The position numbers and the translations under genes were made by a program. Below the pieces are notes generated by a model. That model was not told where the DNA came from, did not search any database, and saw nothing but the letters and a program-made list of their open reading frames with translations. DNA of 50,355 nt, counting the filler, from Streblomastix strix (lineage: Eukaryota), in the NCBI GenBank assembly GCA_008636045.1. It is 2 parts of 2 records of this genome, joined end to end, with 100 filler letters (N's around TTAATTAATTAA, not from the genome) between each part and the next. Parts side by side here need not be neighbours in the genome. Positions count along the whole stretch, not along the records: positions 1 to 25,138 come from SNRW01000209.1; 1 more part is not named here. One strand, written 5' to 3'. Positions 1 to 46,600 of this stretch are shown one piece after another. Numbering within the stretch: the stretch's first letter is position 1; every line of letters begins with the position of its first letter.

Positions 1-1700
1 CTATAGTACCTTTCGCATAGTTTCATTGTTCGTGATGCGAAGAGATCTATTGTTGGAACTAGATGCAGAAATGTTATTGCTTGATTGAGAATAAGAATGC
101 TAATTGAATAGTCACCATGGTGTGCCATTCTATTCAACGCATCCGCTTTACTATTATGAATACCCTTTATGTGCTCAGTCACTAAGGACACATTGAGATT
201 CTTCAACAATAGGAAGATTATTCTAGTAATGCGAATTAATGTTTTAGCTGATCTCCAATTTCTTGGGCAGAACTCTGTTGTGGGATTGTACGTTTGGAGG
301 GAAAGGCAATCTACATTCATTTATTATAGAATTGGTGAGAATGCTTTCAGAGACATTAATACCGCTACCATCTCGCGCTAGTTACTTGGTTTGAGGTGCC
401 AATTTCCATTCCATTCCTCTGCATCCATTAGCTCCCCATTATTAATCTGTAGTAAGCCTCCCCAACCAATCTCTGAAGCCTCTTTCGTATGTTTAAAGAA
501 TGGAGTCTTGACTGTCAATTCCTTTGGTTTATTATGTTTTATTAACTCGAAAAGTTTGTATAAATTAGGAAGGATTCTCTTGTTAAGCTATACTTGACAA
601 TTTCATGAACCATTTACTATAGCTTTTGATTTGAAAGTGTTTAGTGCGTTGATATAAAGAGAGATCTATTTGAATTGGAATCTTAGAAAATTCAGTACCA
701 CTATTAGGGACACTACTTGTTTCACTCCAACTATCTGTTATTATTTAGTTATTTCTATCCAATATCTTAATTTAGATTTCAACAATCTTCTTTGCTATTA
801 TGGAATTGTGACTTCCATAATGTTGGTGTTCCAATTCCAACCAGGATATTGAAACTTCTTGCTTGGAATCAGCCTACATTTAATGGTATAAATTAGCTAG
901 CTTAAATTCTTGAGAAATTGAACTATCTCGAGTGTTTTCTTAGTGAAAGATATCCTATTACTATCCAAAATAAATAAATCATAGATATATGCTTGAATCT
1001 TAACTGTCCACCATCTTCATATTTCTCTTATTGCTATTTAGAGGGTTTTTGTGAAGAAATACGGACTGTTATGCCATCCAAATGGGAGGCCTGTATAAGT
1101 ATATGTACGGCCTAGGAAGGAGAAGCCAAAGAAAGGATAGAGAGTCTGTGAAACTTTTATATGGTGAAAGGTGTCTTTCGGGTCTATGGTTATGGCGAAA
1201 TCCTTCTGCCTGATAAGATGTCTAAATTACTCCTAACCATCCATTTTGAAACGTTTCTATCAGGTAATAGCATTTATCATTCTGCACTCTAAAATTTTTC
1301 TAGGCCTGCCGTCTGTAAGTTTAATCAAGAAAGTTTGGTTGTAAAGTTTAACATCGTCCGTCCCGATAACAATCCCAGATCTTATTTCCTCTTGTAATTG
1401 TTTATTAAAAATCTACATAATACTTTGAGAACTTTAATATTCTCGATATTTAGAGGTGGAAGTTAGAAAACAAACGTCTTGAAGAGAAGTCCATGATTCT
1501 ATTGCTCCCTTCTGGATCATGTATTCGCCATAAATTTATTTCCAAAACTGATTTTTTGCTTATAATCTGTCGGGTACTGGAAGATTCTTCAGATATTCTT
1601 AATCTTCGAGAATATTACTCTCTTTAAGTTTCCTCTCTAATGAGGGCAGACGAAGGACCTCATTCAGACTAACTGTTTTTCTCATCATCAGTCTTCTCAC
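1..1700 (-). pseudogene. DIRS pol (reverse transcriptase, RNase H, MT-like), decayed; 5' boundary approximate
   Basis: RT motifs: 'RKILECRMIN', 'FKMDG', 'DFAITIDPKDTFHHIKV', 'YTYTGLPFGWHNSPYFF'. The YxDD motif reads YIYD (~980-991). RNase H: 'TKEASEIGWGG..SNQREMVAV'. In-frame TGA at 603-605, 1017-1019 and ~1260-1262. Confidence 0.85.
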
Positions 1701-2842
1701 TTGGCCGCTGCAGGGCCCCCTCCTGACTCAACTCGGTTCATTGAGTAGTTTGCTACTGCTATTGCTGTGTAGGCTGGGATTATACTTATGTATTCTATTT
1801 ACTGTTGAAATTTGGTTGAGGGAGAAGACCTAACTGATGCTTTTAATTCTATGGGAACAGTTATTAGTATTGATTGAATGCTATCGGTTGTTAGAGAAAG
1901 AGAGGCTGTTATTGTGAGAGCAGTGATTACGAAAAGAGGAAGGGGGCTTGTTGAATGAATCCCTGTTGAGGAAAGAAGTTTCCTGGATTATTAATACACT
2001 GCTTTCCCAAATTTGTTCTTTTTGATTGTAAAACCGAATTTAGGTAACTGCTTCAGTTAAACCTGAAACATAGATTACCCTCTTCCTGCTCAAAACTAGC
2101 TTCCAGATTATTATGTGTACATGATCAGATACATAGCCTGAATTGCTTATGGTTACTATTAAATGGGTAATTAATTTGAATCTATAGGTTTTTGTGATTC
2201 AGCTAAGATTTTGGCTGTTTTGGCTGATTCTCTTATGGCTTACTTTGACTATTCTCCTAAAACTTTATAAAGTGAAGTATTTTTTTCCAAAACATCTTTA
2301 AACTAGTCTGCAACTAAAACTACTTCGCTCCTCTGCTAATCATCTTCTGCAATAATTCAAATAACATTATGAGCAGTGAGGATCTAGCGTGTCGCTTCAC
2401 GTAGGTCACCGAAGATTAAAGCTGTTTCAGCTTCTACACATGTATGTTAAGCAAAAGCTGCAACCCGTTGAGTTTCTACGTCGACTTCTAGGTCATTCTC
2501 CCAATAACAGCCAATTACTTTTTTTTCATTTAATTCTAGACTCACAATGAATTCGTCATTTTCAGGGAGCCTGTCTCTTTCGAGCTTGTTTGCTCTTTCG
2601 CTCGTAGGATCAATAACTCTCTCTTTTTGCATAAAGAACTTTACAAAAACCTTCGTGGCAGCATCGAAGAGTAATGTTCTTTAGGTCTATTCCTATGAGT
2701 TAGGTGTATTGCTTATAAAATCATAAATCCAGGACTAAATTGTGAGATTTTATTATTTCACGTTTTCTTCATTGTCCTGATGCTGCTCTTACGAGTTTTA
2801 TATTTAGTTGATACGTTCCTTCTCTTTTGGGAGGTCGTCCAT
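1682..2842 (-). pseudogene. DIRS gag-like ORF1, decayed; 3' end approximate
   Basis: ATG at 2842 (MDDLPKEKERINQ...) runs through track ORF 2447..2632 when TAR=Gln. It has an in-frame TGA at 2357-2359, a Q/N/S-rich tail, and lies directly upstream of pol. Confidence 0.6.
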
Positions 2843-3238
2843 AAAGAAAACTAAATAGAATAACTATAATCTTCTTGTTTTGATCCGGCCCTTTTAAGTT
2901 GGCTTTGTATTCCAATAAATGGAGGTTGCAAGATGATGATTGGTTCAGGAAAACCTCACTCAATTGGGTTTTTTTTCTAAATACTATATTTTGAAATTGC
3001 CCAAAAGCTTCTTCAAATGAGATAATCAAAACCTTATTTTGAAGTTTTCATTTATTTTGTGAATTTATAATTTTAATTAAAAAATACAGAATATTTTTAT
3101 AATTCATTAAATAAATATTAGATTCTATTTTACTTTAATGCGAACTTTAGGCTTAATTTATTAATTCAAACAAATTTAATTACATTAATAAAAGAAAATC
3201 AATGAAATGAGTTAAATTAATAATATAAAATCAAGAGA

Positions 3239-4719: not shown

Positions 4720-7554
4720 ATGTCCTCTTTACAGTCTTGGCGTGATCTTAACATCGATGAAGTGAATGAGAAAGTTAATTAGATTTGCCCTTTATAATCC
4801 GATCTTACAGATAGTGAAAAAATAATATTTTCTGTGTTGCGAGATGCAATCAAAGAGAAAGGGCTTCCAATTTAACTTAGAATAGCTGGAGGTTAGAATT
4901 GATATTATATTAATTGTGTTTTGATTTGCTTGTTTAATAAGGTTGGGTAAGGGATAAATTATTGAATATATAGAGCAAAGATCTTGATTTTACAACGGAC
5001 AAACTTACAGGGGTAGAATTTGCCAATATAATTCTAGATTTTTTGAAACGGAACAATAGATTGGATCTTGCAGGGCGAATATCTGTAATCAAAGCTAATC
5101 CCGAAAAATCAAAAGTTTTCATACTTCTATTATACAATATTACCTATACTTATATATAATACATTTAATAAGCACTTGGAGACTGCACATATGCGTTTAT
5201 GTGGAATTGATGTTGATTTTGTTGGATTGAGGAAAGAAACATACAAACAAGACAGTCGATGTCCAATAATTGTATACAAATTTTATTAATAATATTTTTT
5301 TTTAATTTTTTACTTATTAGGAAGTTGGTGAAGCAGCTGAAGATGCATTAAGAAGAGATTTGACAATAAATGCACTTTTTTATAATGTAACATAGAAGAT
5401 AGTTGAAGATTTGACAGGGAAGGTTTTTTAATTTGAAAATAATTTCATTTAATAATTTGTTATTTAATTTAATAAGGGATTGATTGATTTGAAAAATAGA
5501 GTAGCTCGAACTCCAATTGATCCTATTTAAACACTTACTGATGATCCTCTTCGAGCATTAAGGTTTTATTAATCATTCAAATATATTCTTTTATTTTATT
5601 TTATTTTAATTTGATATTATTTTTAGAGTTATTCGTTTTTCTTGCCGATTATCTTTAGCTATTGATCCATAACTTTCTGAAGGATTAAAAATAGATGAAA
5701 TACATGTATATTTATTTTTATTTTCAAATAATCTATTTTTATCTTAATTATTATCCTAATTATTATTAGAAACGAATTCTCACACTTATTTCAAGAGAAC
5801 GTATTGGTGAAGAAATGATAGGCATATTTCTCCGTAGTGGTGATGATATGCACAGAATGCATGCTGTTGACGGGCTCCGATTAATTGCAGCTCATAAACT
5901 AAATGATGTTATCTTTCCTCTTGGTTGTATGATTGAAATCACAATTAATGATTTTTAAACAACAATAAAATATTTTTTATTTATCTAATTTATAGAAGAA
6001 AAATGGAATGAATAAGAAATTTCTATTGGAATTTGCATTGCTGATGCAGTAATTAATATTCTTTATCCTTAAACAGCTTATATTAATAACGAATAAGTGA
6101 AAGAATAAGAGAAACATATGGATGATATAATAATCCACAAATCATCATAATTAGATTAATCTAATTCTCTCTTAAATTCATCACTTATTGAATTATTCAC
6201 TCCTGAGGCTAGCGAAGATTCTAAACCATCTCATTCTACATAGAAATCTTAATCTTAATCCTCTTCTTAACTACCTAACTCATCAGACAATGTTGAATGT
6301 TTTACTGGAACTATATATAACAGAAACAAATAGTTTCTTCTATGTTACTTACTCGCATCTGTTTTCTATCCCATAAGAAACCAGCAGATTGAAACAATAG
6401 TCAGCAAAAAAATAAAGACAATCCCCACATTTCATTTAATTCTTAAAGGATTTGCGGTTTGAATTTATAATATTATAAACAAAGATCCTTTATTTTATAT
6501 TTCAATTTTCAGTATAGCACGAATATTATTGAAAAAATAAGCCGAATTTTGGATAATTTTGAAGTGCTGAACAATCTATTTGGGCATGATATTGAAATAA
6601 TTTATAATAACTAGTAATATAGTGGAAATAGCAAAGAATTTAATAAAGAACCAGAGAAATATGAAGAAAAACAAAATTCCAACATATAAATAATTGACAA
6701 TTAAACAGATATTGATGAATTTAAGACAAATAAATTAGAATTAGGTTTTTTCATTATTATTATTTACAATATACTATATATCATTCATATTACAGCCAGA
6801 ATGATTGGATCATATGGAAAAGATTGGAAAGAAGCTGCTCTATTTTATGCGATTGTAATTAATGCTTAATATTAGCAAATGCATTAGACATCAATTTTTC
6901 ATCAATCTTCTTCTCGAAGCGTAACATAGACATCCTTTAATAAAACAGCTTTACTTATTTTTAATCATATACTATCCTTCGCAGAAAATGCTTAGATTTC
7001 AACATGCTATTCAATCAGTGCATTATTAAGCGTCTGTTTCAACTTTTTAATTATAATTGTTCTTTATACATTAATATTTTTTTAACAGGCTGATATAATC
7101 TAGAGGAAATTTTTAAATCCTGATTAAAAGCGATTTACAGGAGCTTTTTTACATGAATAATGGGAATATCTTGTTTTAAACAGAGAAGCTAAGGAAGAAG
7201 AAGTTGAAGTTTGTTTATTTTTAGTCTAATAATTTTAATATCTTATTATTTTCTTTAATATAAAATATATATTTGAAATTGTAGCAATTTTTAGCTAAGT
7301 CAACATAGGATATTATTGGAAAATATTTATTGGCGGAAGATAAAAAGAAGAATAAATGAGAAACAATAAATCCAATGGATGAAGAGAAATAATAATAATA
7401 AGATGATTCATAAGAAATATCAATTAAAAACAAGCGAAGGAGGGAATCAGAAGAGAATAATGATGAAAATGAAGATAGAAAATAAAGAAAGAGACGGAGA
7501 ATAGAAGACGATGATGAATAATAAAATATAAATCATCCATTTAACACCCAGTGA
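4720..7554 (+). CDS. CCA1: CCA tRNA nucleotidyltransferase (class II), multi-exon; ends at 7359 if the internal TGA is a true stop
   Basis: Motifs across GT-AG introns: LRIAGG/WVRDKLL..DLDF, KANPEKSK/HLETA, DVDFVGLRKETY..SRCP, EDALRRDLTINALFYN, EDLTGK/GLIDL..RTP, DDPLRALR/VIRF, SRERIGEEM. Confidence 0.92.
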
Positions 7555-7836
7555 AAAACATATAATCAATTAGTTGTCTTTTCTCAAATATTGATAATTA
7601 AACATCAAAATTTTGCATGAGCAGAAATTATAAAAAGACAAGATTCATGTGATAAAAATCCCTCCCAAAATATGAAAAATATATATAAATTTATTCGCTG
7701 CTTATCTATAGTGGATTAAATAATAAATTTATGTTCAATTTATCATATTAAAGCAAATAAAATTCAGTAATATGTTTAATGAATGATTAGATTTTTATTG
7801 TTTCATTAAGAAATGACTTTATAAGGATAAGCAGTC

Positions 7837-9704
7837 TCACTACTCACCACCTTCCTTGATAAGGTCATCTATTTTTAAAACCATTCGGACTACTTGAGTT
7901 GCAAGTTGAATCTATTACTTCTTTCCCAGAAGTGTTTCAAATACGCCAAGATCTTTCATATCGTTCTTACCTGTCTCAAGACAATCTATTCCAAGACGTG
8001 GATTCTTCTTCTTGCCTTGTTCTGCTTTAATACGGCCTACTTCGGCCATAGCATCAATTCCACTATTCTCTGCAAGTGCTATTGGAATAGCTTCAAGTGC
8101 ATCTGCAAATGCACGCATTGCATATTATTCACTACTACTAACAGTGTCAGCAACAGCTGCAATGTGTAATGAACAAGCTATTTCTGATGCACCTCCTCCA
8201 TAAACAATTCTATTATCTCTTATTAAGTTGCGCACAACACAAACAGCATCATGAATAGAACGTTTTGTTTCTTCAATAATCATCTTATTACCTCCTCTGA
8301 TGAATATAGTAACTGCTCTAGTCTATGGGCATCCTTCTATGCAGGTCATTTCTCCTTCACCACTTCCTCCACTTCCCAATCTCAATTCACGGACTATTCC
8401 TGCTGATCCCAATTTCTCTGGTGAAAGATCTTCAAATCTTGGGACAATCTTTGCTCCTGTGGCCATCGCTATTAATTCAATGTCTGGTCCACCAACCCAT
8501 CGAATCGCAGGAAGATCATTCTTCATTAGAAGATAATTGGCTTCATCATCAAATCCCCACTTCATTATATATATTATATTCATTGATAATAAATTAGTTT
8601 AATATAAATAAAATTACAATACCTGGCAGATGATGAGATTTGCACCACTCTTCTTACAGAGTCCAACCATATTTCTGTAATAAGCTTTTTCTTCCTCTTC
8701 TAATCGTTCAAATTTCTCTTTAGTATCAATTTATAACTGAAATTATTAAAATAGATTAATAATAATTAGTAACATAGTAAAATAAGAAGGTGGAAATAAA
8801 AAAATAATTATTTACCTCATATTTAGTCTTTGGTTTTGGACATTCAAAAGGGCAAGTAAGAATGGCTATCTTTGCATTCTCAATCTTCTTCTTCATTTAC
8901 ATGTGCGAGATTCCTTTGTCGATAATTAGACCGTGTACAAGTTCAGTATCTTCCAAACGACCTCCAGGCTGTATGATGTTAAAAAAAATTATTATAATAA
9001 AGCTTTCTGGTTTAAAATTGTATATTCTTATATATATATTTCTGTATTATAAAATTGAGGTATACCCTACTCTCTATTTTAATGTGATCAAAATGAACGT
9101 CTCTCCTTTCCCACTCACAGACAGAACACACAGCGTCAACTGCAATCTTCGCCATCTATTCACTCTAACGATTTATAATTTTAGAGCTTATGCATGATTT
9201 TGCAGGAATAAGAAGAGGTGCTGTGTTGTCCTTTGAGAAGTCAATAACTTCAGCAATATCATCAAGGCATTTGCAACATTCCTATGCACTGAGCTCGTAT
9301 CCCTCAGCAATACGAATTGGATGCACACCTTTATCGAGTAAGTGAAGTGCTTATTCTAAAAGAGCACATGCAAAAATTGCAACTCCAGTCGTACCGTCTC
9401 CTACCTCATCATCGTGCGCAATAGAAAGCTCAACAATTAATCGAGCAACTTCATTGCTAACATCAATTTGTTCGAGGATGGTGCGTCCGTCATTCGACAC
9501 TGTGACATCACCATCTTGCGAAACCAGCGCTTTATCCATGCCCCTAGGTCCATATGATGTACGTACAGAGCTTCCAAGCGCCATGGCAGCATAAATGTTA
9601 TTTTTCAGTGCCTCAATACCAGTTACACGCTAGCTGCTTTGTTCACGTAAAATTATGATTGGTTAGCCCATCTCATCTGTCGCGACTCCCACAGCTTGCA
9701 TCAT
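7837..9704 (-). CDS. CCT5: T-complex protein 1 subunit epsilon (chaperonin CCT), 3 introns
   Basis: Motifs: [125 protein letters not shown] at 7837-7839. Confidence 0.97.
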
Positions 9705-27922: not shown

Positions 27923-30900
27923 TCAATTCTTTTTCCCATAAATTGTAGGTTTTGCAGATGTAGGCAGTATCTAGGATTCCATTTTGATTATATCTGCTGA
28001 AGCACGAAGTGATGATTAAATAAGCGAGAGTTGTTTTGCAAAGTTTAATGCACTGATCCAACTCTCTAACTCATCCTTAGATAGAGCAGCAAATTTATCC
28101 TATTTGTTATCACATTTAGTCTATTGATTTGGCATACTTTGTTATTTTATGAAAAATGGGTAAATGAAAGGATTCTCAAAATCTCCTTATTCATTTAAAT
28201 TATATTCTGATTGGTTTTCTTGAGATATTTATGGAGATTTTTTCCCCATTTCCAATTTTTATCCTTACTTCTTATCGATTTAGCTCTCATTTACATGAAT
28301 ATGGAAATAAAATGCTTCTTGATCTTATGTATAATATCCTGTTTTATGAAAATTTTCTGGGTCTTTCAGAGGTTCAATAATTACTTTTCTTTCACCTTAT
28401 TAGCATTTATCATTATCATATTCTTTGTTTCCAATCATTATTGAATATATTGGCTTCTTTTGTTTTTATATACAAGAATATGGAGTTTCATAAAGGATAA
28501 ATTATTCTGTAAATAAAACTGCCCAAACAATCTTTTTCTTTTCCATCCATTTCAAAAATCCTGTTTTAATCGCATTTTCAACTGACATAAGAAACTTTTT
28601 AGCTTTTCTTCTTAAAGTAATAAATTTCAATATGTCACCTTAATTAGTATTGAAATTTTAGTAGAATTCAGGAGAGGCAATTTTTTCTAATTTGTCAAAC
28701 AATGTTTATCTGTAATCCTTTGAATCGGTATCATCTTTCATTATAGCTACATTATCAATAGCTCTAGACGTTATTGCTTTCTATTAACTTCCAATATCAT
28801 TTTTATTGTTTCTGTGTTAAATATTTATGTTACATGCAGTTGTTACATACGATATATTGATTCCAACATTTTAATTCTACTCTAATTAAATGGTTTAAGG
28901 TAAAAGTATATCAGTATTTTAATTTACTAGTTAGTTTGCCACTGCTGGGGAACCATTTATTATTTATTAAATTGGAGTTTATGAGTTTAATATTTAGCGT
29001 TATATATTTTATTAATAAAATGAATTATTTTGTATTTGTGGGGGATCAATTAATGTCTATGGACTAATTATTTGATTTATATCAGGTTCATTCTCTATTG
29101 TGTTTTTGTTCGGTTTTTATTACTTAATTTAAATATAAGGTAAAATCCAATGTAATTAAGCCTCTTTAAGTACATTTATATATCCAAATCCCGAATTTCC
29201 TAATTATGCAAACGAAAATGGAAAATTAAATTTACTTTGGATTAATTATTATTATGTTTGAAATTATTTGCGTTAATTTTAATATTATTGATTAATATTT
29301 TTCTGATTTTTATTTCCTTAAATGCTGATTTTCTATTCAATTCTTTTTTTAGAGACATTGTTATTGTTAATAAATGAGAAATCAGGAACATTGCCGACAT
29401 TCTAATAAAGTAATTAACTGCCAAATGTTCTTTATTAAGCAAATTATATTTTCCTTTGGATTTAAGGAAGAGATGAAGATGCCAATAGTAATGATTACAA
29501 ATTATTCATTTTATTTTATTCATCTAATTTAATATTTGAAATATTTTATTATTCAATATTATCAAATTTTTATTCTTAAATAGTATTATTCGTTTATTAT
29601 TCAATTATGGTTAAATTTCCTTTATTAATGATATTACGCAATGGAATAGATCTAATTTGTTTTTATATCTCAAATTAATAATTTGTATTTTATTAATCTC
29701 CTTCAAGATTAATATCCTGACTATTGAGGAACTGTTTGAATTATTCACAATATTTAAGAGCTCTTGCATCTTCTCTATCATTTTATATTTTTTATTCTCT
29801 CCTAATTCGCATTGTTGATATTAGTAATGATAAGAATACAGAACTTGAGGGATATTATCTGACATTAGACAACCAAGGTATATATCTTATTCCACATCCT
29901 ATCTTCATTAAATTCCACATCATCTGTTCTCTATTTTATTTCATCTCTTTTCTTCTTCTCTTTTGTATTTATTTATTATCTAGTTTTTCATATTATTATT
30001 ATGAGTTATTACTAAAGCTGTTTCTATTGATTTATAGTGAATATTTAATTTATTAGTTCAATTATTAATTCGTAGGCGTAGATGAAAGAGATGGTTATGC
30101 AGGAGTAGATGATGTTTCAGGAAATATTTCATTGTTATTTAAATTTTAATTCATATTTGTTTATCCAATTTCTTCATCTTCAAAGGAAGAGGATTATTCT
30201 TCTACCAGACTATTTAATTGGTTTTCTTATTCTTCTTATTAAAAATTTTATATCCATTTATTAAAATTTTAGAGGAAGTAATCATATTCTAAATGTCTTT
30301 TATATTTAATTTTATTATTATTATAATCTTCTTATTTTAAAAATGGTAATAATGTCATTATGAATATAAAACTTTTCATATCTCCTTATATCATTATCTT
30401 TTATATTACATTTAAGTTATTATTATCTTTTATCAATATATTGGCTCCTGATAGAATTAAGTTTGCAATTGGTTTGTTTGGAAGAGCCAATGAAAATGAA
30501 GAAGAATTTGGAGAGAATGAATCTAATTATTGAGATACAAATGATTCATTTTTTATTTATTCTGCATCCATTAGGGCTACAAATTATTATGAAAATGATT
30601 CAGCTGTTAATATTGCTTGAGGAGATAATTTGTAATAAATAACCTTTTTATAATCTTTTGAAGATTATTCGATTTTTTTATTTTATATATTATTCATATT
30701 TCTTATATTTTTGCTCTTATACTCTTAATTTTAATTAGTTTCTTTTTTATTATTTTCATCGGTATATATTTATTATTAAGATGTTTATAACATAGATGAT
30801 TATTATATTGGCATAATTATTTTATTTGTGTCATCTTTCTAATGTATCAGATATTTTATTCCTGATGGTAGAAATTAAGGTGATTCAATCTTAGAATTCA

Positions 30901-33900
30901 TATCCATATTCATACTCTCATTTACTTATTTACTTATAATTAAATTCTTTATGTTATCAAAACTGTTATTTAATACATTATTATTATTCTAATTTATGTT
31001 AAACTAAGGAGTAGATGGAGTAACAACTTATTAATTTAAATACGATGTAAAAGGAGATCTTATTGGAGAAGAGAAAGAAGAAGGTGAAGTTGAGAGATGT
31101 TATTATGAAGATGAGAATAAAGGAAGAATAACAGTTGATTGTGGTTATTGGTATGGTTATTGTATGTATGGTGATGAATGAATTGTATGCATATGAGATT
31201 ACATGGATGAAGGAGAAGAAGATTCAGGAAATAATCTTTTTCTTGGAGATTAATTACTCAGATCTTCTATATGAGGTAGTGATCTATTTAACATATTATT
31301 TTATAGTAGTTACTCTTATTATTGGTGCTTTTTCTTATGGTTCACAATATATTCCATTCTTTTTACTTATCTATCATCTTTTATTTTCTTTTTTTCAATC
31401 TTCTTTTGTTTCTTTCTTTCTTTTTCTTATTATCTTATTTTCTATCTCTCTTTTTCTTGTGTCAATTAATCTTCCAATTTTTTCACTTTATTTCCTATTT
31501 ATTCTTCTTAATACTCTTTTTAATTCATATTTTAGTTAATATTGACTTGTTTTTCTTTCTCCACACATTCTTTTATTTATTATTATTCTTTGTATTTCAT
31601 TTCTTGCAATTTTGTTTAATATTTAACAATAAGTCCTCTTAATAATTCTATTACTTAATTTGGTATTATTTAAATCTTATTCATTCCAGAAGAATGAATA
31701 TAATGTAATGCTGTTTTTCCATAATTATCCGTAGTATCAATTTATTTGCTGTTCAGAAAAGGTAATAATTATAATATTATTTTAGAGTGCTATTATTTAG
31801 ATGCCAATAATAAAGATGTAGCTTTTTATTGCCAATAAATATCTATCCCTTTAATATATTAGTTTAATCCAGCGAAATTTTCAACTGGTATAATCTATTT
31901 TTAATTAACATATGATATATATAAAGGAGGATAAATAGATTAATATTATTATAGTATTTATTATTGTTGTTGTTATGCATATAATTAAGAAGTATATAAA
32001 ATGTTGTTATATAATAAAGGTGATTAAATTAATTGAGGAACTGAAAGACCAGATCTGGAATTAATTTTCTTTTGTTCTTATTGTTTCTAATTCTTTAATT
32101 ATTAAATATTTTTTTCATTCATTTATTAATATAGGACAGAATTATCATCATTTTTGAAGAATGTATAATTAACTTGTTAAGAATGTAAAGGAGAATGTGA
32201 TATAGTAACAATTGGTCCTTTTTCATTGCTTTATTAATAACCAAGTTAAACTTAAGGAGAAAGGATAGTTAAAACATTTTATTTTGTATTTTTAACAGTT
32301 TTGGTATCATTAATATTTTAATGGTTATCAATAAGTTAATTTGAAGGTTAAGAATATACAGATTAAGAAGAATGAGAAGATTTTCTACTAAAATTATCCT
32401 TATTAACTTTATTCATATTTTAATTTCTGTTTTATTAGTTATAATAATCATATTTAATTTATGATAATGCAATTCCAGATGCGGAAGATTAAGATGATAT
32501 AGCATCTAGAAATGCATTAAGTGATTCTGAACACCCTGATAAGCAAATCAAATGAAATAATGAATAACCATTGAATAGTAAAATTGGCTGTTATTTATAT
32601 TCTGATTATTGATTCTATGGTATAAGTTATTATTATTATTTTGTTCTTTCTCTCAATTTCCTTTCTATATCTCTTCTATAATTACTATTTGAATTGTATG
32701 AAATTATTGGACTTTATTATTATAATTATTACTGATTTTATTATTAATTTAATTACTTTATTTATGATTAGATTAAAGGAGATAATATATTAGATGGAAA
32801 ATGAGATGTATTAAAAGAAAGATCTTTACTATTTGCTCTTACTCTTAATTTATCAAGTTCTCCTGTATAATTCATTATTTAATCATTAATGTTTCTTTGT
32901 TTAACTTATTATTAATATTTATTAATGTATAACAATTATGACTATAATGATGAAGAAGGATTTTAATATGAATAATTATTATCATCATATTTACCTTTAT
33001 CAAAACTACCTCTTCCTCTTCCTTATTCATTTGAATCTTCCATTCTTTTATTTATTTGTATATCTGTGCTTCTTCTCTATCTATCTCTATTTTATGATGA
33101 TTCATCCCCTATCTATTTTCTTACTTGTTAATCATTCTTATTTTATTATTATTTATGTTTGCATTATTTCTCCTATTAAAAAGAAGATGATATAAGTTGT
33201 GTTGTAAATAATTAAGGGGAATGAGTTGGAGACTGTTGCACATTGAGCCCCCAACTTCCAGATCTGTTTCTTTATATTGAAGATTGATTGCCTTCTTTTA
33301 TTCCTTTGTTATTAGTCTTATAATTTAATTTAACTGGCTATTCATTCTATTTCAACTTAAGTTCCATACTTAACTATCTTTTCTTTTATTTAATTGAATC
33401 TTTTATATCTTTTTTCATTCTTTTCATGTCTTATTTTACTTATTCTTCCACTTTTTCAAATTGATTTCTTAAACTCATTTTATTATTAATATTGAAGTAT
33501 TAATGAAATGATTATTTAAATGGATATTGATTTTATTATTTAATTTATATTTATTCTTCTCTATTTTATTTTTTTTATTATTAATTTTCATAAATATTTC
33601 TATTTATTCTTTCTGTTCCATTCTCTAATAAAATATTAGTATGCTCAGATGAAGAATATTCAATATTTTATTCATTTTCTCTTAATTTTTTCTTTTTAAT
33701 TTTCTTAGTTTCTTTTTTTCTCTATTGAGAAATATATCCTTCTTTATTCATAACCAATTCTCTTTATTAAAATTAGTTTTATTATTATTTATTAAAATAA
33801 AATAAATTTCCTCCAAATAGTGAATTTTCTTCACTATCACTCTTATAATCATTATAATATTAATTATCTTCACTTTATTCTTATTCTTAAACATATTTTA

Positions 33901-36900
33901 ATTCTTCATTATCAATTGTATCCTCACATTCATTTATTTCATTTTCAACCATCTTTTTTACTTTCATATTAATTTCTTTCTTCTTCTTTATTTTGTTTCT
34001 TTATTATTATTATAACTATTATAAATATGATTATGTTGATGAATGTGAAGGAGATGAAGATGATGAAGGTTATGATGTGTGAATATGAATATTTGTATGA
34101 GACTATGTTGAAGAGGATTATTATGATTCATTCGTTTTGCTACTTTTGACTGTTTCACTAAATTTTCTTTCTTTGCTTACATTTGTAATACTTCTTTATC
34201 TTTAAATAAATTATTGCCTATTTAATTATTGTGTTTTGCTTTTAGTTTAATTTTTGAAATTATTCTGTTAAATTCTTTCTTCATCCTAATCTTATTCACT
34301 ATCGTCTTCATCATCACTATGCAAATATCTATTTATCATCTATTTCTACATTCCATTTCTTCTTTCTCTTTCTCTCATATATTACATTCTCTCTTTTTCT
34401 TTCTATCTCTGGAATTATTATTAGTATTATTATTTCTATTATTTCAGTTTAATAAGTTATAAATATGAATTCTTTTAAAATAATGGAGATGATACATTAT
34501 ATGATTATGAGCCAGAGAATAATAATGATCGAAGAAATGTCTGTCCTGTTGAATATGATGAAGATATTGATGATGGAGAGTAAATTGTAATTATTATTTT
34601 AGATTAATTATAATTGTTTTATTCATTGTTATTTGTATTTGTAATATTTTACAATTATTCGCCTTGTTTTAAATCCAAATTATTGCTCTAATTATGTTAT
34701 TATAAAAAAACTGATTTTTATTCACTATTTTTTGATTAAAAAGATGTTTCTCTCGATCTCATTTCATTTTCTGGATTGAAAATACTTTTATCTTCATAAT
34801 CTCTGTTAGAATCTTTATTTCTATTTATTTCTTTTTCTCTTTATTCTTCTTCACCCTCTTCTTATCTTATTATTCTATCCGTTTCTATTTACTCCCTTTA
34901 TTTATTCCCTGTTGCTAAAGAAGAAAAAAATGTTCTTAGAAAAGTGCCAGAATCTAATGAAGCACAAATTAAAGCTTATATTTTAATTAAATTGAATGAG
35001 CATTGATCGCAAGGCTAATTGTGAATTATTTGTGTTTCTTACTATAATTATTTATTCTTTGAATTGGAATGTTAAGAATGATTAAATTATAGGTTATTAT
35101 CAACATTATTATCATTAAAACCTTTAGAATTTTATATTTTTTCTTGTCCTTTTATATTTTCATGTTACAAAAATGAAGATGAAGAAGAATTTGAGTCATT
35201 GGAAGATTATGAAAGTGAAGATTAACTTCTTATGAATTATTTATTATTACTATTTCCTTACTTAGTATTATTTTAATCTTTATTCTAATTTTTTTATTCC
35301 ATTTTGATACTTACATCTTTATCATCATCATATTCTTATTCTTCATCATTAATTTATTCTTATTTTTCTTTATTCTTATTTTTCTCAATAATAATTTATT
35401 CAACAAATAAACATGGTGTATGAATCATTATATAAAATATCAATCGAGAATAAGTCATCATTTATTAGCCTTTATCTTCATATATCTATTATTTGATATT
35501 TTAATTCATAGTCATATTCATTTGCCTATTGTTATTTTAATTAATATTAATAACATCTTCAAATCTTTCTCTATTTTAAAATATATTCTATTATTACCCA
35601 CTAAATATTTAATTTTATTCATTAATCAATTAGTCCTTATTATTTTATTATTCAAATTAACTCATTTGAGAAGTTGACTATGAAACTGATTATGATTATG
35701 TATATGGAGAATGAGAATAAGGAGAAGAAAAGGAATATGTTGGACTTGGATATTAGGATTATTATTAGGATTATTATTAGGATTATTATTAGGATTACGA
35801 TTAAGATTATGATTAAGATTAATAATATTGCATTTATTATTCATTTTAGGAAGAAAATAAGGATATTGGATATGGCTGAGACTATTAATTAATTGATTAA
35901 GAAAATATTTATTTATTAGTGAGAGAATCAGGTTATTTTGAATATAATTTTTAGTCAATTTTTCTAAATGGAGATCCTATTTCGGTTTATTAATATATTT
36001 GTTGTTATTATTAATATTAGTATTCTCTTTTCTTTATTCAATTTTATTTGCTAATCAATCTTCTTTTCCGATTCTCTTATCTAGAATCTTAATATCTTTA
36101 CTCTTATTTATTAATAAATTTTCTCCATCCCTATTCAATAGTTTAATTACTATTGCGAAAACAAAATGGTATATATGAAGCACAACTATAATATATCTAC
36201 TTCTATTAAGACTATTAAATATATTATTATTAAGAATTATTATAGGATGTTACAGAAGGAGATTGGAGTTAGATTGAAGGAGAATTAGTAGATAATATTA
36301 TTTATCTTTCTGTATAAGGTGTTTTCACTTATTATTATTATTCTTATTATTATTTAATATTAATTGTCTAAGAAGAATTTTATAATTAATAAAATAAAGG
36401 ATTACTTATTTAATAATCAAATGAATTTATGAAATTATTTTCCAATTTCATCATCTTTCTATTCGTTTATTTACATATTTCTTAAAATAAATCTTATTGT
36501 TGTATTATTTTTAGTTCATAATTTTTTTATTATTATTATTATTATTACTCATAATTATCATCTGTATCTGCTTCATTGTTATTATCATGATACTTATTAC
36601 CACTTTCAGATCTAAAAGAAGAAAATGGAGTAAAATATTAAGATTACGAAGATGAGGAAGAAGATTAAGATGAAAATGATGATAATGACTGTAAAGACGA
36701 TTTCAAATATGAAGTTTAATTAGAAATAATTGTACCATTTTTTTAAATATGAAATTTTTTTAAAGGACTATTTAATGGTGATACAAATGAAGAAGGAGAA
36801 GAAGATGAAGATTAATTTTGCTTATTTTGTTTATGAGAAGAATGATGATTGTGATTAGTATGAGAATGTGAGTTAGAATTGGATAAAGAAAATGATTATG

Positions 36901-39900
36901 ATTCACATTCAGATTATGAAGAAGAATTAGAAGAAGAATAGGAAGATTTATAAGTTGATGATGATGAAGAATAAGATGAAGACGAAGAAGATGAAGATAT
37001 ATATGTTGAAGAATATATAGGAGAACTGGATAAAGATGATGTACTTAATTCAGAATCAATCTATGATTCCTATTCATCATCTAAATAAGCGTCTCTTTTA
37101 TCTGTAATTATAAACTCATTGTCATTTCTTTCTTTCTTATTCTTCATATTCCTATTCTTATTCTATTTAATTATATCTTTCTTCTTTTTTTTAATTTCTT
37201 TCTCTTCAATTTATTATTCTAAATTTAATATAGATTTTCTTTCAATGATTTATTATGGTTGAGAAGTAAATAGCTAACATGGTCCTCCGTAAGCAAGTAA
37301 AATGAATAAAGAAGCAAAATTCTATGTCCTTATTGAAGATAATATTGGCGTTTCACCTGAACAGAAAGGAGATCCAAGAGGAGGAAGAGATTAATTAAAA
37401 ACATCTTAAATTGAAGTATTACATTAATGCTTGGGAAATGGATGCATTGAGATATTAGAATAAGATTAAGGTGATTAATATGAAGATTATTATGAGTTAG
37501 AATATGAAGAGATCTGTTAATTGGTATTATTATTGTTCCTATATTAAAATTAATATAAATAATAATAATGTCGATGAAAAGAATAAGATTAGAAGAAGGG
37601 AGGTGTAAATGAATAGTTAGGAGGATGAATTATAGATTATGATGAATTAAATGAATAATCTCTTTCTTACATCTCTCTAATCATCTTCTTTCTTTCTATT
37701 CTCCATTAATATCTTCTTTTCTTCTTCATTTCCTTTATTTGGTTCCTTTCTCTGACTCTTTCAATTTATATTTCATACTCTTCTTATTCATTTGAAATTA
37801 AATCTAAATAATTATTATATAATTATCGTGTTATTATAGAGTCGGTTTCATTATGCAATAATTAATGAGTAAATAATAAGGAAGACTTTCTACACAATGA
37901 ATTTGGCAATATATATTATAATGATTAAAATTATTAGAGAGAAGTATTATAAGGTTATTATTAATATTAAGATAATGAATCTGGAGATTAAATGGGTTGT
38001 TATTGAATTGAATTTGCAAATGAAGGAATGGAAGTTTAAAGAGAAGAAAATAACGGAGATTAAGATGAGGCTTGCATTTGTGGATTTGAAATTTTAAAGC
38101 TTTAAATTGATGTTTATACAAAATTTTACTTATTTTCTTATTAAAGTTAATCATTTACTTTATCAATTTTTATGTCCTTTTTATGTAATATACTAAAATT
38201 TCTTCCTCCTTTCTTTTTTTCAATTTCTTATTATTGTTTCTTTTATTACATTGACAATTATAATTATTATTTATTCCAATTTTCTAATTTAATTTTTCTT
38301 TCTTTCTTTATTTAAAATGCATAATATGATAAAGATTGTATAATATAGGTAATAACTTAAGAAGATATTAACAATGGAGAAGATAATAAATAAGAAATTG
38401 TGTCTACACTACCACGTTCGGTTAATAAATGTAAGCAATTTCTATTACCTAAATAGAATACCAATCTATTAAGAGGATGTGTCTCTATTTATTAATATTA
38501 TTATTACAAATGATTAGGATATTAAAGAATAAATTATTAAGGAACGTAGAATCTTGATTATTATTTGATTGGTGATTAATACATTTATTATTATTTAAAT
38601 GGAACAATAGAAGTTTAAGGTGATCGATTAATAATTGGAGAGTTAAATCCTATATAATTCTGCTGTTGGTATGATTAATTTAATTAATGTTGTTATTTTT
38701 AGTTTAAATTATAACTTTGACTTTACTGCAATGATAAAGATTAAGATAACTGCTCAGATGTAATAATAGGTGCCTGATGAGTAAATAGTTTTAATTATTG
38801 ATTCATTTATTCATTATTATTATTTATTTATTGTTATTATTATTACTATGATGATGATGATGATGATGAAGAAGAAGAAGAATAGGAATATGAAGAAGAT
38901 ATATTTGTTTAATTTAACTATGCTTTTTATTATATTTATTACTATTATTATGGATTATTAGAAGGAATGGTTGCTAAAATTGTTGGAAACAAAAATGGTT
39001 GTTATAATTAAGATTACTATTAAAATTAATATTAATTAGATAAATTATTATTTTTATTGTTAGATGCTTATAAATTTGATTGTGAGAAAGATTGAGATTG
39101 TATTTAATCTTATTTACTCTTTCCACCTGTTTTGATTTACTAAATAACTACTTTTGTTTATGATGAAGATTATAAAACTGATTATTTAATATTTTATTAT
39201 TAATTTAGTGGAATTTTGGAGGATGCATCTGAGAATATAACGTTCTAAAACTATTAGTTTTGTATTTTATTAATATTTGGATTTCCAACATTGTTACTTA
39301 ATGTTTACATTTATTATAATATTAAATTCTAATTTTTTATATCGCTTTAGTTTTAATTATTAATAGTTTATGATGATAATATACTTGCATTCATGTTAAT
39401 ATTTTCTTTTTCTGTTTCATGCACTTCTTTAGTTTCAAACTATCTTAAATTTTCTTCTTCCTTTTTCTATTTAGTTAATAAACTTTATAATGCTTATAAA
39501 TCTCTGTCAAATTAATTATAATTCATTAAAGCATTATCATATTATAATAGTAATAATAAAGGTTATAATCTGAGCTATGTGCAAGAATGGTGATAAGGAT
39601 TCATTTTTATTCTATCTTCCTATTTTGTATTTGCACCTCTCTACAATAATAAATTCATTAATTATATATCTCCTTAAGCAGCTGCAATATGAAGTAATGA
39701 ATAACCAAAAACACTGTCTTATTCATTTATATTAATACCAAATGCAATATACCAACCTATTTTATGTAATCTATATTAATGTTGCTTTGATTAATATTAA
39801 TGTTATTATGGATCAGGTAAAGATTAATATTTTTATTATGAATTTAATGTTGAAGAATACGAAGAGAATAAAGGAGATTATATATGAGAGTGAGCTAATG

Positions 39901-42900
39901 GAAAGAAGAAATGTTATTTAGTAGCAGAATGAGCATAATTATCATCATACTATTACTAATTAATATATTACAACCTATTCTTTTACAATTCTTCCTGATC
40001 TTCAAGAGATCCTGGGCATAAGAAACAAAACAAAGGGAAATATATTTTATTAAATTATTGAAATTTTTATTATATTTAATATCCTTATATATGCTGATTT
40101 GTTGAATGATTCTTCAATGTTCGATTTATTTTAAATTCTACGAAATTATTCATATTTTCAATTTATTTATTTTCTTTCTCTTAAATATTCTCATTCTTAT
40201 GTTAATTTTATTTCTTATTATCCTGATTTATATTTTCATTTTAATTTTCATTTTACCGATTTTATTTTTCATTATAAATTCTATTATTAACAATGGGAGA
40301 TTAAATTGCACTTCGAATTATGTTTTATTAATTATTTTATTAACTATTTTAATTGTTTTATTATTATTGTTATTTTTTAATTTATTATTATTAATAACTA
40401 ATATTATTTATTTATGGCGGTTGCAATATTTCAAATACTCTTGCAGTGCATACACATGAATCAATACATCCCTAACATTCATATGAATAGTAATCCTAAT
40501 TGTAATTATAACTGAAGTTGTCTTTGTGATTAATATAAGAAGTTTGTAAACATGAATATGGAGAATATGGTGTAAAAGGATTATAGTATTAATTGTATTC
40601 GTTAATTTCATCGTCATCTTCATTTTAATCTTAAAAAATATTAATATTAATATGATTATTGTTATTGTTACTGTTTTATTTTATTTTATTTAATCCTCCT
40701 TTTCTTTCTATTTTCATCTTCTTTATATAAATTCTCTCATTTCTTTATCCTTCAATTGAGACATTGTTATTTATCCATCCATTAATCGCTTTCTCTCTTT
40801 TCTTTTTCCAATATTCTTTTATTATTTATTATTTAAGTTAATCTTTTATAATTGATGTTTAATTTCTATTATTATTATTTGATTGTTTACTACTATTTCT
40901 TTATTGTTTATTGTTATTATTGATATTAGTTGGACTTTATACATCTACTCTTCCTTTTCCTTATTCATATTAATCTTCATTATTAATACATTTATCATTC
41001 TACTCTTTTTATTTACTTCTTTCTCTATCAGATTCATAATCCATATATTCATCTTCTTCATATTCATCTTAACCTTCTTCATCATACATACATGTAATCA
41101 ATGCTGGAGTTCTTCCCCAACAATCTCTTTAATTAATTGCAAGAAGTTATTATTAGTTTACAAGTCTCATATTATTATTAAATTCATTTAATATGATGTT
41201 AATATCTGATTAGTGTTAATGCAATTACAAAAATTAATCCTATGAAAATGACTATTAATTTTATTATGTTTGAATTTGAATATTATTCCTTATTAATGAA
41301 GGCGATATTGGATATTGGAATGAAGAAGATTATAATTATTAAGGTTCCTATTAATATTATTTTATTTATGATGGTAATTATTAATGCAAGAATGATGATG
41401 AAGTCTATTGTGATGTAAGATCTGGAGTTCTTTCTATCTTCATTCCTTTATTCATGCTTGTAATATCTTCATTAATCTTTTCTTCTTTACTATTTTATTA
41501 ATATTTAGTCTAATTGTTATTCATTTATTCATCATGTGTTAATTATGATATTTATAAATTATTATTTAACAACTATTTATGTTTTAATGGTGATGGTTAC
41601 GATTAAGAATTAGGGTTTAAGCTATTTGCTAATGATTCAAATTATAACTATTTATAGTTTTCAATATTCTTTTCTTCCAAATTTCTTACAATACCTTAAT
41701 TGTTATTTTGAACATACTTTTCTCTTGTTTATTCATCTTATCTCCTATTTCTCACATATTTCTCGTTTCTGCTTTTTTTCAATCTATTTCGTCTTCTCTA
41801 TTCATCTCCATTTATTATTTTCCAAATGTATTCATTATTTCTAATTGTAATTCTTGATAATATTTATAATGCATTTTAATTTATATACAATTATGGATAT
41901 GTAGAAGAATATTCCGAAGTAGATATGTAAGATGGAGGAGATACAAAACTCCTTTCATTATTGATAGTTTATAATTTCTTTAATGACTCGCTTTTTTTCA
42001 TTGTAGGTTTGTTTAATTCATTATCTTATTTGGATTATTGAGCTTTTTGTTAAATTTTATTATTATTAAAATTTAAATTCTGTAAGTATTATTATCCTTA
42101 ATATTTACCAATTAATTTTTCATTAAATTCAAATAAATAATATAAATTTTAATTTGGCTCATAAAGAAATTACTATTACCATTATTATTAAATATAATTT
42201 TTATTTACGAATTATTGTTCATATTTATTTTGTATTATTTCTCTTTCCTCTAAAGTTAAATTCTATATATGTGATGCTAATAATGAATAATATTATTATT
42301 ACTGATATTATTGTTAAAACTAATATGAAACTTAAGAATGAGGATTGTTATGTTATTTAGTTACAGAATTATGAGAAGGGTTAGTTTGATAATTAGAAGA
42401 ATTGTTTTCATATGATTATTAAGATGATGATAATGAAGAAAATTATGTTTGTGAAGTTTGCTCAGATTATTAATCTGTTAACTAATTGTGAAATTAAGAT
42501 TAAGATAAATGTTAAGATGGAGATTATGATGAAATGTTATCAGGTTTTATTTTCACACTTGATAATTATTTATTTTTATTGATAATACTTATAAAATTAT
42601 TATCGTTTTTAATATTCTATTTATCTTTATTTTTGATGTTGATTTCTATTTTGTTCTCTTTTTCAACATAATCTTCCATTTAAATTTATAATTCTTCTAA
42701 TTATTCAAAAGATGAAGAATTACTAGAAAAATTAGAAAAATATTTAGATGATTAATCAGAACTACTATCTTCTTAATTTTTTTATTCTTTTTCATAAATT
42801 TAATCAAAATGTTCATTACTTTACTCCTTTCTTTTTTATCTTGTGATTTTATTCAATCGTTTTAAGTTATTAATTTTTTATTCTCCGTTTGTTTCATGTT

Positions 42901-45900
42901 CATTATCTTCTTCTTCTTCTTCCTCATCATAATAACATTACCATTTAATTGACTGTAATAATGTTAATGGGTGAATATGAGGAGATAAATGTAATGTATT
43001 CATATTAAATATAGAAAATGGAGATTATATTCTATTTTAAATGAATTGCGATATATTAAATCAATGATCTAAGGGAATTGAGCAGGATGAAGAAAAATTA
43101 GAAAGAAATGAAAATGAAGATAATTATTGTTTTGTAATATTCACTTTAACATATTCATCAATATTCTCTCTTTATATCTCTTTATTACATAATTATATTT
43201 ATTAATCAATATTTTCCTATAATAATTATATTTTTGTTAATACTAATTATTTAGATTAAATTTTATCTTTATCTTCTTTAGTTAATTGTTATTCTTCTTA
43301 TTGCTATTCGTAAATTTAATTATTTTCCTCTTCCAGTTTAATTTCACTCACATTTACTGATTTATTATTTCCTAAATTAGTTTTCTATATTAATTTACTA
43401 CAATGAAATTCGCCCTGTAATATTTAATGTGGATTAATAAAACAATTGTGTAAATTTAGTAAAAATCTAACAATCTAATCGTTAGCCTCCTATTTCCCAC
43501 CTCTTTTACCTGAAAATAAAGCAATAGACAATAATGATTCTCCATTATAATTAGAATAAAACCAGGGTTAATAATTGTTTGATTGATCAATTGTATTAAT
43601 ATATGAATAAGAAGATGATGATGAAGAGTGAGATAATATTGGTGAAGGAGAAGGAGAATGTGAAAATGAATTATCTTATTATTATTATTAGTTTATATTT
43701 CTTTCTTTTTTTCTTAATTGATTTATATATTATTTGTATTTTTATCTATTCTTTTATTAATACATTTTCTCTTTATTATATCTCTTTTCTCCTACTTTTA
43801 TCATAAAAATCATTTATTTAATTAGCCTACATCCAATGGTCATCTAAATATTTTATTCCTCTTATTCATTTTTTTATTGATTGTTTTATTCATTTTGTTC
43901 CTTATTTGTATTAATAGAAGAATTATTTGTTGTATTTTTATATTTATCTATAACTTTACTCTTTATATTACAACTATTTTCTTTTTCTTCTTCAATTAAT
44001 TCATTATTATTAAAACAATAATCTAAATATTATATTTTAGCTTTTTTATAGATACTCAAAGGAAGTGATGAATGAATTGATGATTATGAGAATGGAGGAA
44101 ATGCTTATGGAAATGCAGTTTAAATATTATTGAAATGAAATATGGAGTTGATATTTTATTAAGTTATATCATTACGTAATTGCCGTTATGAATATAAGTG
44201 TTTTTAGTTATGAATAATCCTTCTAATATTTATTATTTTAGATGAATAAGGAAATGAAATATATAATTAAATAGACTTTTTCTTTTTCTTATTTAAACTT
44301 GTTAATTTTTCGTTATCTTTTAAATTACTTTTATTATTTTCTTTCATATTTATTGTTTTCCTAATAAAATACTCTTCATTTGTCCATTGCACATATATAT
44401 TCATATGATCTCATCTTTCCATCAGTTATTATTTAATATTATATTCACAATCATATAATGTATCGTCATCAAATAAATTTAAAGGAAAGTAATTAAACAA
44501 TAAATTAGTTTCAAAAATCCCTCTTATTAATTAATGTAATACTGTATCTCCTGAAAATAAACACGGAGATTAATAAAATAAAAATGGAGAAAATGAATTG
44601 ATTGATGAATTAACTGATGTGAATTAATTAAATTAATTATGTTTGATAGCAAGTTTCTAATTAGTAACATTAAATTATTTTATGCTTCCTTATAATTAAT
44701 TTTCAGTTTTGTTTTAATGATTTATTTCTTATATTCCTAATTTCTCGTTCCACAATTTAACTCCTTCAATAAATCCAGATCGCGAAGCATAATGAATGGG
44801 CAGCATCCCATTTAGATCATATACAGAAATTAATTATATTCCAATTTATTATTATTCTGATTATTCGACATAATCTAAAGTAATTTAATCTTCATGAGAT
44901 AAATGCAATTTTTATTAAGTATATAATTAAGCATATTTAATTAATATTTTACAAATTCTTATATTTCCCGAATAAAAAGCCATATGAATTGGAGTTGTGA
45001 AAGGGACTGCTACTAATTGATGTTTGAAAACTTTAATAGTATCATTTGAATGTTATGATGTGGATTAACTAATGATTTTGTTGCTTTCTTTAATTGGCAA
45101 TAATTTTTAAATTAATTCTATTTCTTATTTAATTTACTCTTAGCCATTTAATCTTTCAGTAATCGTATATGAAGGATAATGAAATCTTGGCCAAAATACA
45201 ACTTTTTAATCTTTTCGCGTTTGAACACTCGTTAACTCATTTGTTGAATTTATGCAATTTTCTTGTAATTTATTTTCCTAAATCTATTCAATATTCTATG
45301 AAATCAACTTTTCGCCGTTATTTTTATTTTGTTTTATTTACAAACTAATCCATTTACAAAAATAAAATAGTAAAGAATTAGGAGGTTATTAATTGAATCC
45401 TAATGAATGAATGCAATTTTAAATATCTTATATTGAATGACGTGGACAGAAGATTGAAGGAATTATATTATTAAAACTTGGAATTTAATATATTTGATTT
45501 ATTGGTTAAGGTTATTATGGTTTATAATCTATTAATCCAGGAAGAGTTACAGGAGTAATATATGAGAAAATACTGAATATCTTTGAATTTTATAGAACTA
45601 GATCATTTTATTTATATTTGTATTATTTACCTGATTTTTAATAATCAATTAATTATTAATGAATTTTCTTCTTATTCTTAATATATATCGGTTTATTATC
45701 TTCACTAATTTCAATATTAATTAATGTTCCAGGAAATTTCTCTTATTAAGAACAAAGAAATCCTCCAAATATATCAGCTCCAAACTACAATAATAATTGT
45801 GTAGTTTATTCCCATCCACGAATTATTGATAAAAGAAGAGCTGGATACGAAATAAGAGGTTAATTAGTTTCTGTCAATGGAATTGAAGTTGTAATAGAAC

Positions 45901-46600
45901 TCTCATTAATTTCCATTTCTCTATAAAATGCTTCATCTACCAAGTCTACTGCGCTCTAAAGTACAGCTCCATTAATAAATGAAGCAGCACCATTTGGATT
46001 TGCACCAGTTTTGAGACATTTAAATACCAAATGTTAATCTTCTATGCTCCCAAATATTAAGTGAGAAAGAAGTCTGTGTGTTTGATGTTCTCTCTAATCA
46101 TATCTCTTTCTAGCTGAAGGTGATCTAATAGCATCAATGACTGATGCTACAATAGGTTTTTAGGATTATGATGCTTTGATTTTAATATTCTTTTTCGAAG
46201 GAAAGAAGAACAAGTTTCGGTTTTGTATATTATTTTCTTTTCGTATATATGTATTCTATTTTTACTATTTCAATGTATTTAAAAATTACAATTTTTCTTT
46301 GCTACTTTCAATTGGAGTAAATATAAGTGGGAAATTCAGAGGAATAAAAGGTGGAATATAAGAAGTTGATTCTTGAGTATGGAAAAACTTTCTTGTTTTA
46401 CCATTGTGTAGATCTCTAATTTCTCTTGAAGTAATACATCTCTCCATAATATCTACAGGGGACATTCCATATATATCTGTAGCTTGTGAGTCTGCACCGT
46501 GTTGCACGAGGAATTACGCACGTTTGAACTAACAGGAAAGAAGAGCTCGCATCAAAGGCGTTCTTCCGCATATGTCCACGCTGTTAATATCGGCAGCCAT
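27923..46600 (-). CDS. Giant apparently intronless ankyrin-repeat protein with C-terminal PH domain (~6225 aa), mostly Q/S/N/P low complexity; three internal TGA
   Basis: One frame from ATG 46600 to TGA 27923-27925. Ankyrin motifs: GRTPLMRAL, TTPIHMAFYSGN, GMLPIHYASRSG, GYSLLHIAAAQGD..LLLQRGAN, DNYGKTALHY. PH motifs: IKTGFLKW..VWAVLF and FAALSKDELESWISALN. Internal TGA at 44411-44413, 43061-43063 and 36038-36040. An additional upstream exon cannot be excluded. Confidence 0.8.
35750..35800. repeat. Tandem 12-bp repeat (ATTATTAGGATT) within the ankyrin ORF, encoding QSQQ units
   Basis: Read directly; about four copies. Confidence 0.75.

Follow-up and report, generated by a model that had tools for sequence, protein, structure and literature searches.

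Functional stop-codon readthrough of the UGA-CUAG type appends a targeting signal to a protein, and in Blastocrithidia the UAR codons specify glutamate. All three canonical stop codons are found inside genes in Blastocrithidia nonstop and Amoebophrya sp., a likeness to the locus described here, and a tRNA-Trp(CCA) whose anticodon stem has 4 bp is a known UGA decoder in such codes (PMC13092985). The closest described systems are Parduczia sp. and other karyorelicts (translation table 27) and Condylostoma magnum (table 28), where UAA and UAG encode glutamine and UGA occurs both at gene ends and in frame, at 0.04-0.12% of codons (PMC4967479). Swart et al. reported 0.042%, 0.059% and 0.120% for three UGA-translating ciliates and pointed out that in-frame use of UGA is easily missed (PMC4967479). 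For these ciliates the demonstration that UGA=Trp drew on conserved genes, on mass spectrometry and on ribosome profiling, and 3' UTRs measure 21-23 nt (PMC4967479), whereas the present case concerns a metamonad lineage and no TGA was found at a conserved site in it.

For the oxymonad Streblomastix strix a code with UAR=Gln has been published, with TGA at gene ends (PMC13002328, PMC1501061, PMC11687900). In the excerpts of PMC10089648, PMC5304391, PMC11687900, PMC13002328, PMC1501061, PMC10703272 and PMC13092985 the species appears only as an example of UAR=Gln. Neither an in-frame TGA in S. strix nor an ambiguous oxymonad code was found in the literature covered, namely search listings, the openings of abstracts and the above excerpts; the first description of the code, from 2003, and the paper on the S. 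strix genome could mention the former.

The window, by which we mean the whole stretch of 50,355 nucleotides analysed, is AT-rich eukaryotic DNA with TAA and TAG as sense codons (1034 and 175 in frame in 10,833 codons). Direct support from alignment for UAA/UAG=Gln is thin, with Gln at one of four columns common to both oxymonad orthologues. The window departs from the published code in seven lone TGAs within host genes, one of which, at 7357, lies in the gene of a CCA-adding enzyme and the others in two giant genes, here called A and B (Table 1). They amount to 7 of 11,124 codons, or 0.063%, which falls inside the ciliate range, a count taken over genes modelled by coordinates; about six small genes, read by eye only, would lower it slightly. 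The reading we favour, at a probability just short of even, is that UGA is both a stop and a rare sense codon in S. strix, i.e. that the code is ambiguous and the TGA at 7357 translated.

Table 1. Features of the window (positions along the whole stretch)
Feature	Position	Strand	Basis or remark
Decayed retroelement (RT/RNase H, overlapping frames), decay control	3..2944	-	6 TGAs in 1484 codons
Predicted class II tRNA nucleotidyltransferase (CCA-adding enzyme) gene	4720..7554	+	model; P0004; PF01743; orthologues P0132, P0133
Last CCA exon to first TGA (QFLAK...DKKKNK)	7285..7356	+	aligns with end of M. exilis orthologue
Internal in-frame TGA, context AAT AAA TGA GAA	7357..7359	+	195 nt before second TGA; no GT..AG escape
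64-codon coding-like, low-complexity extension (Q/D/E/N/K/R-rich)	7360..7551	+	sequence reading, codon model
AATAAA, poly(A)-signal-like	7365..7370	+	5 nt 3' of first TGA; second copy 7351-7356
Basic cluster KNKRRR, NLS-like by pattern	7426..7443	+	pattern only
Basic cluster RKQRKRRR, NLS-like by pattern	7477..7500	+	pattern only
Second CCA TGA	7552..7554	+	DNA 3' of it scores non-coding
CCT5 (TCP-1 epsilon), control gene	7837..9704	-	intact; aligned to homologues
Gene A, one 2888-codon frame, mostly disordered	12586..21252	-	frame listing; no Pfam match
Gene B, one 6225-codon frame, start uncertain	27923..46600	-	frame listing; ankyrin repeats

The CCA-adding enzyme gene and the extension behind its first TGA

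Under a code with TAA/TAG=Gln the gene is modelled as 12 exons with 11 GT-AG introns of 49-76 nt each, and comprises 663 aa to the first TGA and 728 positions to the second. The best database match, a Streblomastix strix record (P0004), is identical to the model under code 6 at 307 of 309 residues and leaves its frame after this stretch. PF01743 matched one fragment of the head domain in Pfam (E=1.5e-8), and the model carries the DLD and RRD motifs of a poly(A)-polymerase-type head domain (DxD and RRD criterion). Judged by these features and by orthology, the predicted product is a class II CCA-adding enzyme. Among 1.84 billion representatives the two best matches came from Monocercomonoides exilis (P0132) and Blattamonas nauphoetae (P0133), the top match being named tRNA-nucleotidyltransferase (E=3e-74). 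These orthologues share 52% and 49% identity with the S. strix enzyme over the head domain and can be aligned as far as the C-terminal helix; the three Trp common to both are all TGG in S. strix (3/3). The last intron (7209-7284) joins EEEVE to QFLAK, and since this junction aligns with the C-terminal helix of the two orthologues we regard the frame as right. Three of the first four introns (4892-5476) have AATAAG at their 3' end, with AAG rather than YAG as acceptor.

Beyond the first TGA the frame continues as LAEDKKKNK-TGA-ETINPM...HPFNTQ-TGA for 64 codons, exact to the letter as given in the preliminary description, which had also called the extension coding-like and had seen two basic clusters in it. 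Both clusters are present, and the coding character was borne out by a codon model from which the CCA gene was excluded; its training set was 3095 codons from elsewhere in the window, all upstream of any internal TGA. The extension scored 0.62-0.66 bits/codon in frame, compared with -0.12 to 0.63 in 19 held-out coding windows of the CCA gene and about -0.2 behind the second TGA. An open run of 64 codons is in itself ordinary (P=0.29 for a non-coding frame with TGA as the only stop); the frame signal of the extension was reached by 4 of 5000 base shuffles. The extension is coding now or was so formerly. Of 142 windows taken from genes A and B, 3 had two basic clusters per 64 aa, and a further basic cluster already lies upstream of the first CCA TGA.

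Conservation of the extension in relatives, proposed earlier as a check, is absent from both orthologues compared (P0132 and P0133, both distant). The M. exilis protein ends two alignment columns before the first TGA. The B. nauphoetae protein is 17 residues longer, counted from that column, in an unbroken tail that holds two basic clusters, and no similarity between this tail and the S. strix extension was found by alignment. Among 119 full-length CCA matches, 13, including B. nauphoetae, have a basic cluster within the last 64 residues and three have two; in a smaller set of homologues the figures were 6/80 and 1/80. Going by these comparisons, the S. strix tail is specific to its lineage, whereas in the CCA-enzyme family basic tails recur and are unbroken. 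A search with the C-terminal half of the enzyme gave 0 of 172 candidates.

The distance from a conserved Trp to the C-terminus is 12-88 residues in 68 of the 119 homologues, namely those in which this anchor was found. In S. strix it is 40 residues to the first TGA, within that range, and 105 to the second, outside it. Together with the end of the M. exilis protein two columns earlier, the in-range distance marks the first TGA as a natural stop position. Both observations speak for a plain stop. On that rather unlikely explanation the enzyme would end at 7357 with its catalytic fold whole, the tail would be a relic of a protein that was once longer and was cut short by a nonsense change without harm, and broken alleles or young pseudogenes would account for genes A and B.

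The preliminary description had proposed that partial readthrough, or alternative polyadenylation deciding between the two TGAs, could yield cytosolic and nuclear isoforms; as a regulated process specific to the CCA gene, this would give a short cytosolic and a long nuclear form. The coding-like extension, its two basic clusters, the AATAAA flanking the first TGA and the recurrence of basic C-terminal tails in the family fit this proposal, and yeast Cca1 is needed in nucleus and cytoplasm (PMC10275265). In M. exilis, AATAAA serves as a poly(A) signal (PMC8767320). Against the proposal, the extension lacks conservation, the copies of AATAAA at the first TGA lack U-rich flanks (T 18%), and the hexamer, which occurs within 120 nt of 4 of the 7 internal TGAs, is common in A-rich coding DNA. 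As in UGA-CUAG readthrough, the tail behind the stop is in frame and may hold a targeting signal, but the CUAG context is absent at the CCA TGA (TGA GAA), no readthrough hairpin was found downstream of it (fold z -0.71) and no structure stood out in the 3' region of the gene (z -0.71). Moreover, the same TGA pattern recurs in two unrelated genes. Readthrough as such is plausible; the feature is not peculiar to the CCA gene, given the six further internal TGAs in genes A and B. The idea that poly(A) position chooses the stop matches the proposed working of ambiguous codes (PMC4967479). As to targeting, only nucleus and cytosol are at stake, oxymonads having no mitochondrion (PMC10703272). No readthrough isoform of a CCA enzyme was found in the excerpts of the literature searched. 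Overall, we consider a CCA-specific isoform switch improbable; two-isoform targeting is not needed to explain the sequence, though it may exist, and a position-dependent UGA would readily lead to it.

Less probable still is another kind of recoding or layout: selenocysteine insertion, a shift to the +1 frame at AAA-TGA or an independent ORF of 59 codons that starts at the ATG at 7375. Selenocysteine synthesis has been reported for oxymonads (PMC10703272), AAA precedes the CCA TGA and an in-frame ATG follows 15 nt later. Against these options, no SECIS family matched within 7200-8000, where three sub-threshold snoRNA matches were the only hits, and the TGA lies in a disordered tail at no Cys-aligned position. 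Besides, the shifted frames score lower (0.21 vs 0.62), AAA directly precedes only one of the seven internal TGAs, and a separate ORF would have no AT-rich spacer for a promoter. Splice bypass of the CCA TGA was tried and rejected, as alternative acceptors retain the TGA or enter lower-scoring frames and no GT..AG candidate exists.

Lone TGAs in two giant genes and TGA as a stop codon

Gene A, which is intron-free, Q/N/S-rich and has RGRP motifs that are presumably AT-hook-like, is interrupted by lone TGAs at 18000-17998, 15909-15907 and 15108-15106 and ends in a TGA at 12588-12586; the open runs measure 1084, 696, 266 and 839 codons, and each is parted from the next by one TGA. Gene B has the same layout, with lone TGAs at 44413-44411, 43063-43061 and 36040-36038, a terminal TGA at 27925-27923 and open runs of 729, 449, 2340 and 2704 codons. 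Its ankyrin repeats (Pfam) lie both upstream and downstream of the TGAs, spread among low-complexity inserts. A C-terminal PH match in Pfam was weak, split and below the cut-off (E=0.039), and a comparison of the PH region with PDB sequences gave 0 matches. In the other two frames the DNA of gene A holds 51 and 124 TGAs and that of gene B 92 and 232, as against three in frame in each gene. With the CCA TGA at 7357, this makes seven lone TGAs that lie within uninterrupted, coding-like frames. They are present in both parts joined in the window, on either side of the assembly gap. The join itself (25139-25238) consists of a 12-base TTAA-repeat spacer between two runs of 44 N.

No intron-like sequence was found spanning any of the seven internal TGAs. 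The 11 real CCA introns have a T content of 0.43-0.62 and a GC content of 0.08-0.20, whereas the best frame-keeping GT..AG candidates at internal TGAs reach T <=0.30 and GC >=0.23, and the CCA site and one site in gene B have no candidate at all. The same frame scores best behind all seven internal TGAs and the score is negative behind all eight presumed terminal TGAs, a comparison that is partly circular, since sites were classed by frame continuity.

TGA is a genuine stop in CCT5, where it stands at the aligned C-terminus and all three Trp codons are TGG. In the ATP-binding region of CCT5 (9069-9704, minus strand) SNDGRTIL replaces the TNDGATIL of the solved vertebrate chains shown; because the change involves two bases, it is not a single-base error. 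No internal TGA was seen in the small conserved genes of the window when these were read by eye. They include an intron-free gene for a poly(A)-binding protein (47117-48946, minus strand) with three RRM, an MLLE and no Trp codon or internal TGA. Small intron-rich genes, all on the minus strand and equally free of internal TGAs by eye, lie at 3241-4180, 10270-12042, 21822-22552 and 23004-24872; one is asparaginase-like by a weak Pfam match, and the others are presumably copine/RGLG-like, DPCD-like and ZC3H15-like.

TGA makes up 7 of 44 TGA+TGG codons, where about 82% would be expected of a free synonymous codon; the A-ending share of other codon pairs is 75-86%. None of the seven internal TGAs lies at a conserved aligned position. 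These two observations count against translation of UGA, as do the TGG codons at the shared Trp of the CCA enzyme and the small genes free of internal TGAs. Membership of table 27, for which TGA at conserved Trp columns would be the defining evidence, is putative, though the code would work alike.

Origin of the internal TGAs

TAA, TCA and TTA account for 65-77% of random one-step sources of TGA, and the flanks of the internal TGAs are unlike those of these codons, which speaks for translation. That they are less hydrophobic than TGG flanks (P 0.001-0.02) speaks against it. They also differ from the flanks of TGG/CGA sites taken together (P up to 0.036), which argues against a plain stop, since decay should hit TGG and CGA sites at random. 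Six TGAs arising by neutral change would imply about 215-237 substitutions in 27 kb, and the P value for zero frameshifts would be about 0.01 at 2 per 100 substitutions and about 0.1 at 1 per 100, where the argument loses force, all under assumed mutation spectra. A plain stop would go with a genome in which substitutions build up while indels stay few. It would also require independent hits in three of about ten host genes, with three hits in each of two of these, although 22 kb of downstream sequence have kept the frame. In its favour, the internal TGAs are confined to long, poorly conserved sequence.

A retroelement at one end of the window, which we take to be DIRS-like, served as a control for decay. 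It contains 6 TGAs and no frameshift, and its RT motif is broken (YIYD vs YIDD in sister copies). The residues found in sister S. strix proteins at its three RT TGA sites are Arg, Arg and Trp. A dead element has thus gained TGAs from Arg and Trp codons without frameshifts, and therefore decay in the S. strix genome can yield such a pattern, which supports a plain stop. The TGA share of TGA+TGG+CGA was 6/42 in the retroelement vs 7/88 in host genes (p=0.35), and TGA per codon was six times lower in host genes than in the retroelement (p=0.002). The retroelement family was also considered as a test of the inserted residue and set aside, as it gave only seven matches with columns Arg/Arg/Trp, and a dead copy is uninformative on decoding. 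In the public record P0125 two of the retroelement TGAs are skipped by gaps resembling invented introns. CpG observed/expected was 0.39-0.46 in the giant genes, 0.57 in the retroelement and 1.19 in intergenic samples.

Sequencing, amplification or assembly errors in true genes with sense codons at these sites have a low probability. The public S. strix assembly is described as made from whole-genome-amplified cells (PMC8767320), which would fit errors. The exact pattern around the CCA TGA had 0 matches among metagenome contigs, so that no independent copy was found. An imperfect inverted repeat at about 50030-50355, with the same translated text on both strands, is a fold-back chimera or a terminal repeat, and as a possible amplification fold-back it would suit errors. 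Nevertheless, errors would have to amount to about 0.8% substitutions with no indel in 27 kb, the flanks are unlike the commonest one-step sources, and the neighbouring CCT5 aligns cleanly.

A possible position-dependent meaning of UGA

What this 50-kb window with its seven sites shows is the frames and their continuity, the TGA rate, the lack of an intron escape and TGA as a true stop in CCT5. By analogy with Condylostoma and Parduczia, a near-cognate tRNA would outcompete eRF1 wherever UGA is distant from the poly(A) tail, and a UGA close to it would terminate. On the favoured reading the CCA TGA would be translated because UGA would stop translation only close to the end of the mRNA and would act as an infrequent sense codon in other places. 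The closest approach of an internal to a terminal TGA is the 195 nt in the CCA gene, outside the 24-66 nt zone of PMC4967479. Most of the CCA enzyme would then carry the 64-aa basic tail, and genes A and B would each give one protein, of 2,900 and 6,200 aa. The first CCA TGA may be an old stop that turned leaky, converting a 3' UTR into a coding tail.

For the inserted residue Trp is a candidate by precedent and Arg by flank composition. A flank classifier placed Trp at rank 15-19 of 20 and Arg at 2-9 of 20 at the internal TGAs, with controls in which true Trp and Arg were poorly separated. No tRNA genes were found within the window. At its boldest, the reading would have Arg complete a first-position series from CAR to UAR and from CGA to UGA, and would have the choice of poly(A) site by the first TGA toggle the basic tail of the CCA enzyme.

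More broadly, and with less than an even chance in our estimate, S. strix may have no dedicated stop codon at all, with UAA/UAG=Gln and UGA a position-dependent stop or sense codon, the first such case outside ciliates, trypanosomatids and dinoflagellates. Such an ambiguous code would have stayed hidden because gene models bypass TGAs by invented introns (P0004, P0125).

If this is false, the CCA gene has an ordinary dispensable tail behind a stop. If it is true, a metamonad whose code has been quoted for twenty years as UAR=Gln, with termination by UGA only, would add one more independent origin of codes that lack a dedicated stop codon. As an oxymonad has no mitochondria, a mitochondrial tRNA-Trp(UCA) could not be the decoder. 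Many S. strix gene models would be split or contain false introns, and the poly(A)-distance model would become testable beyond ciliates.
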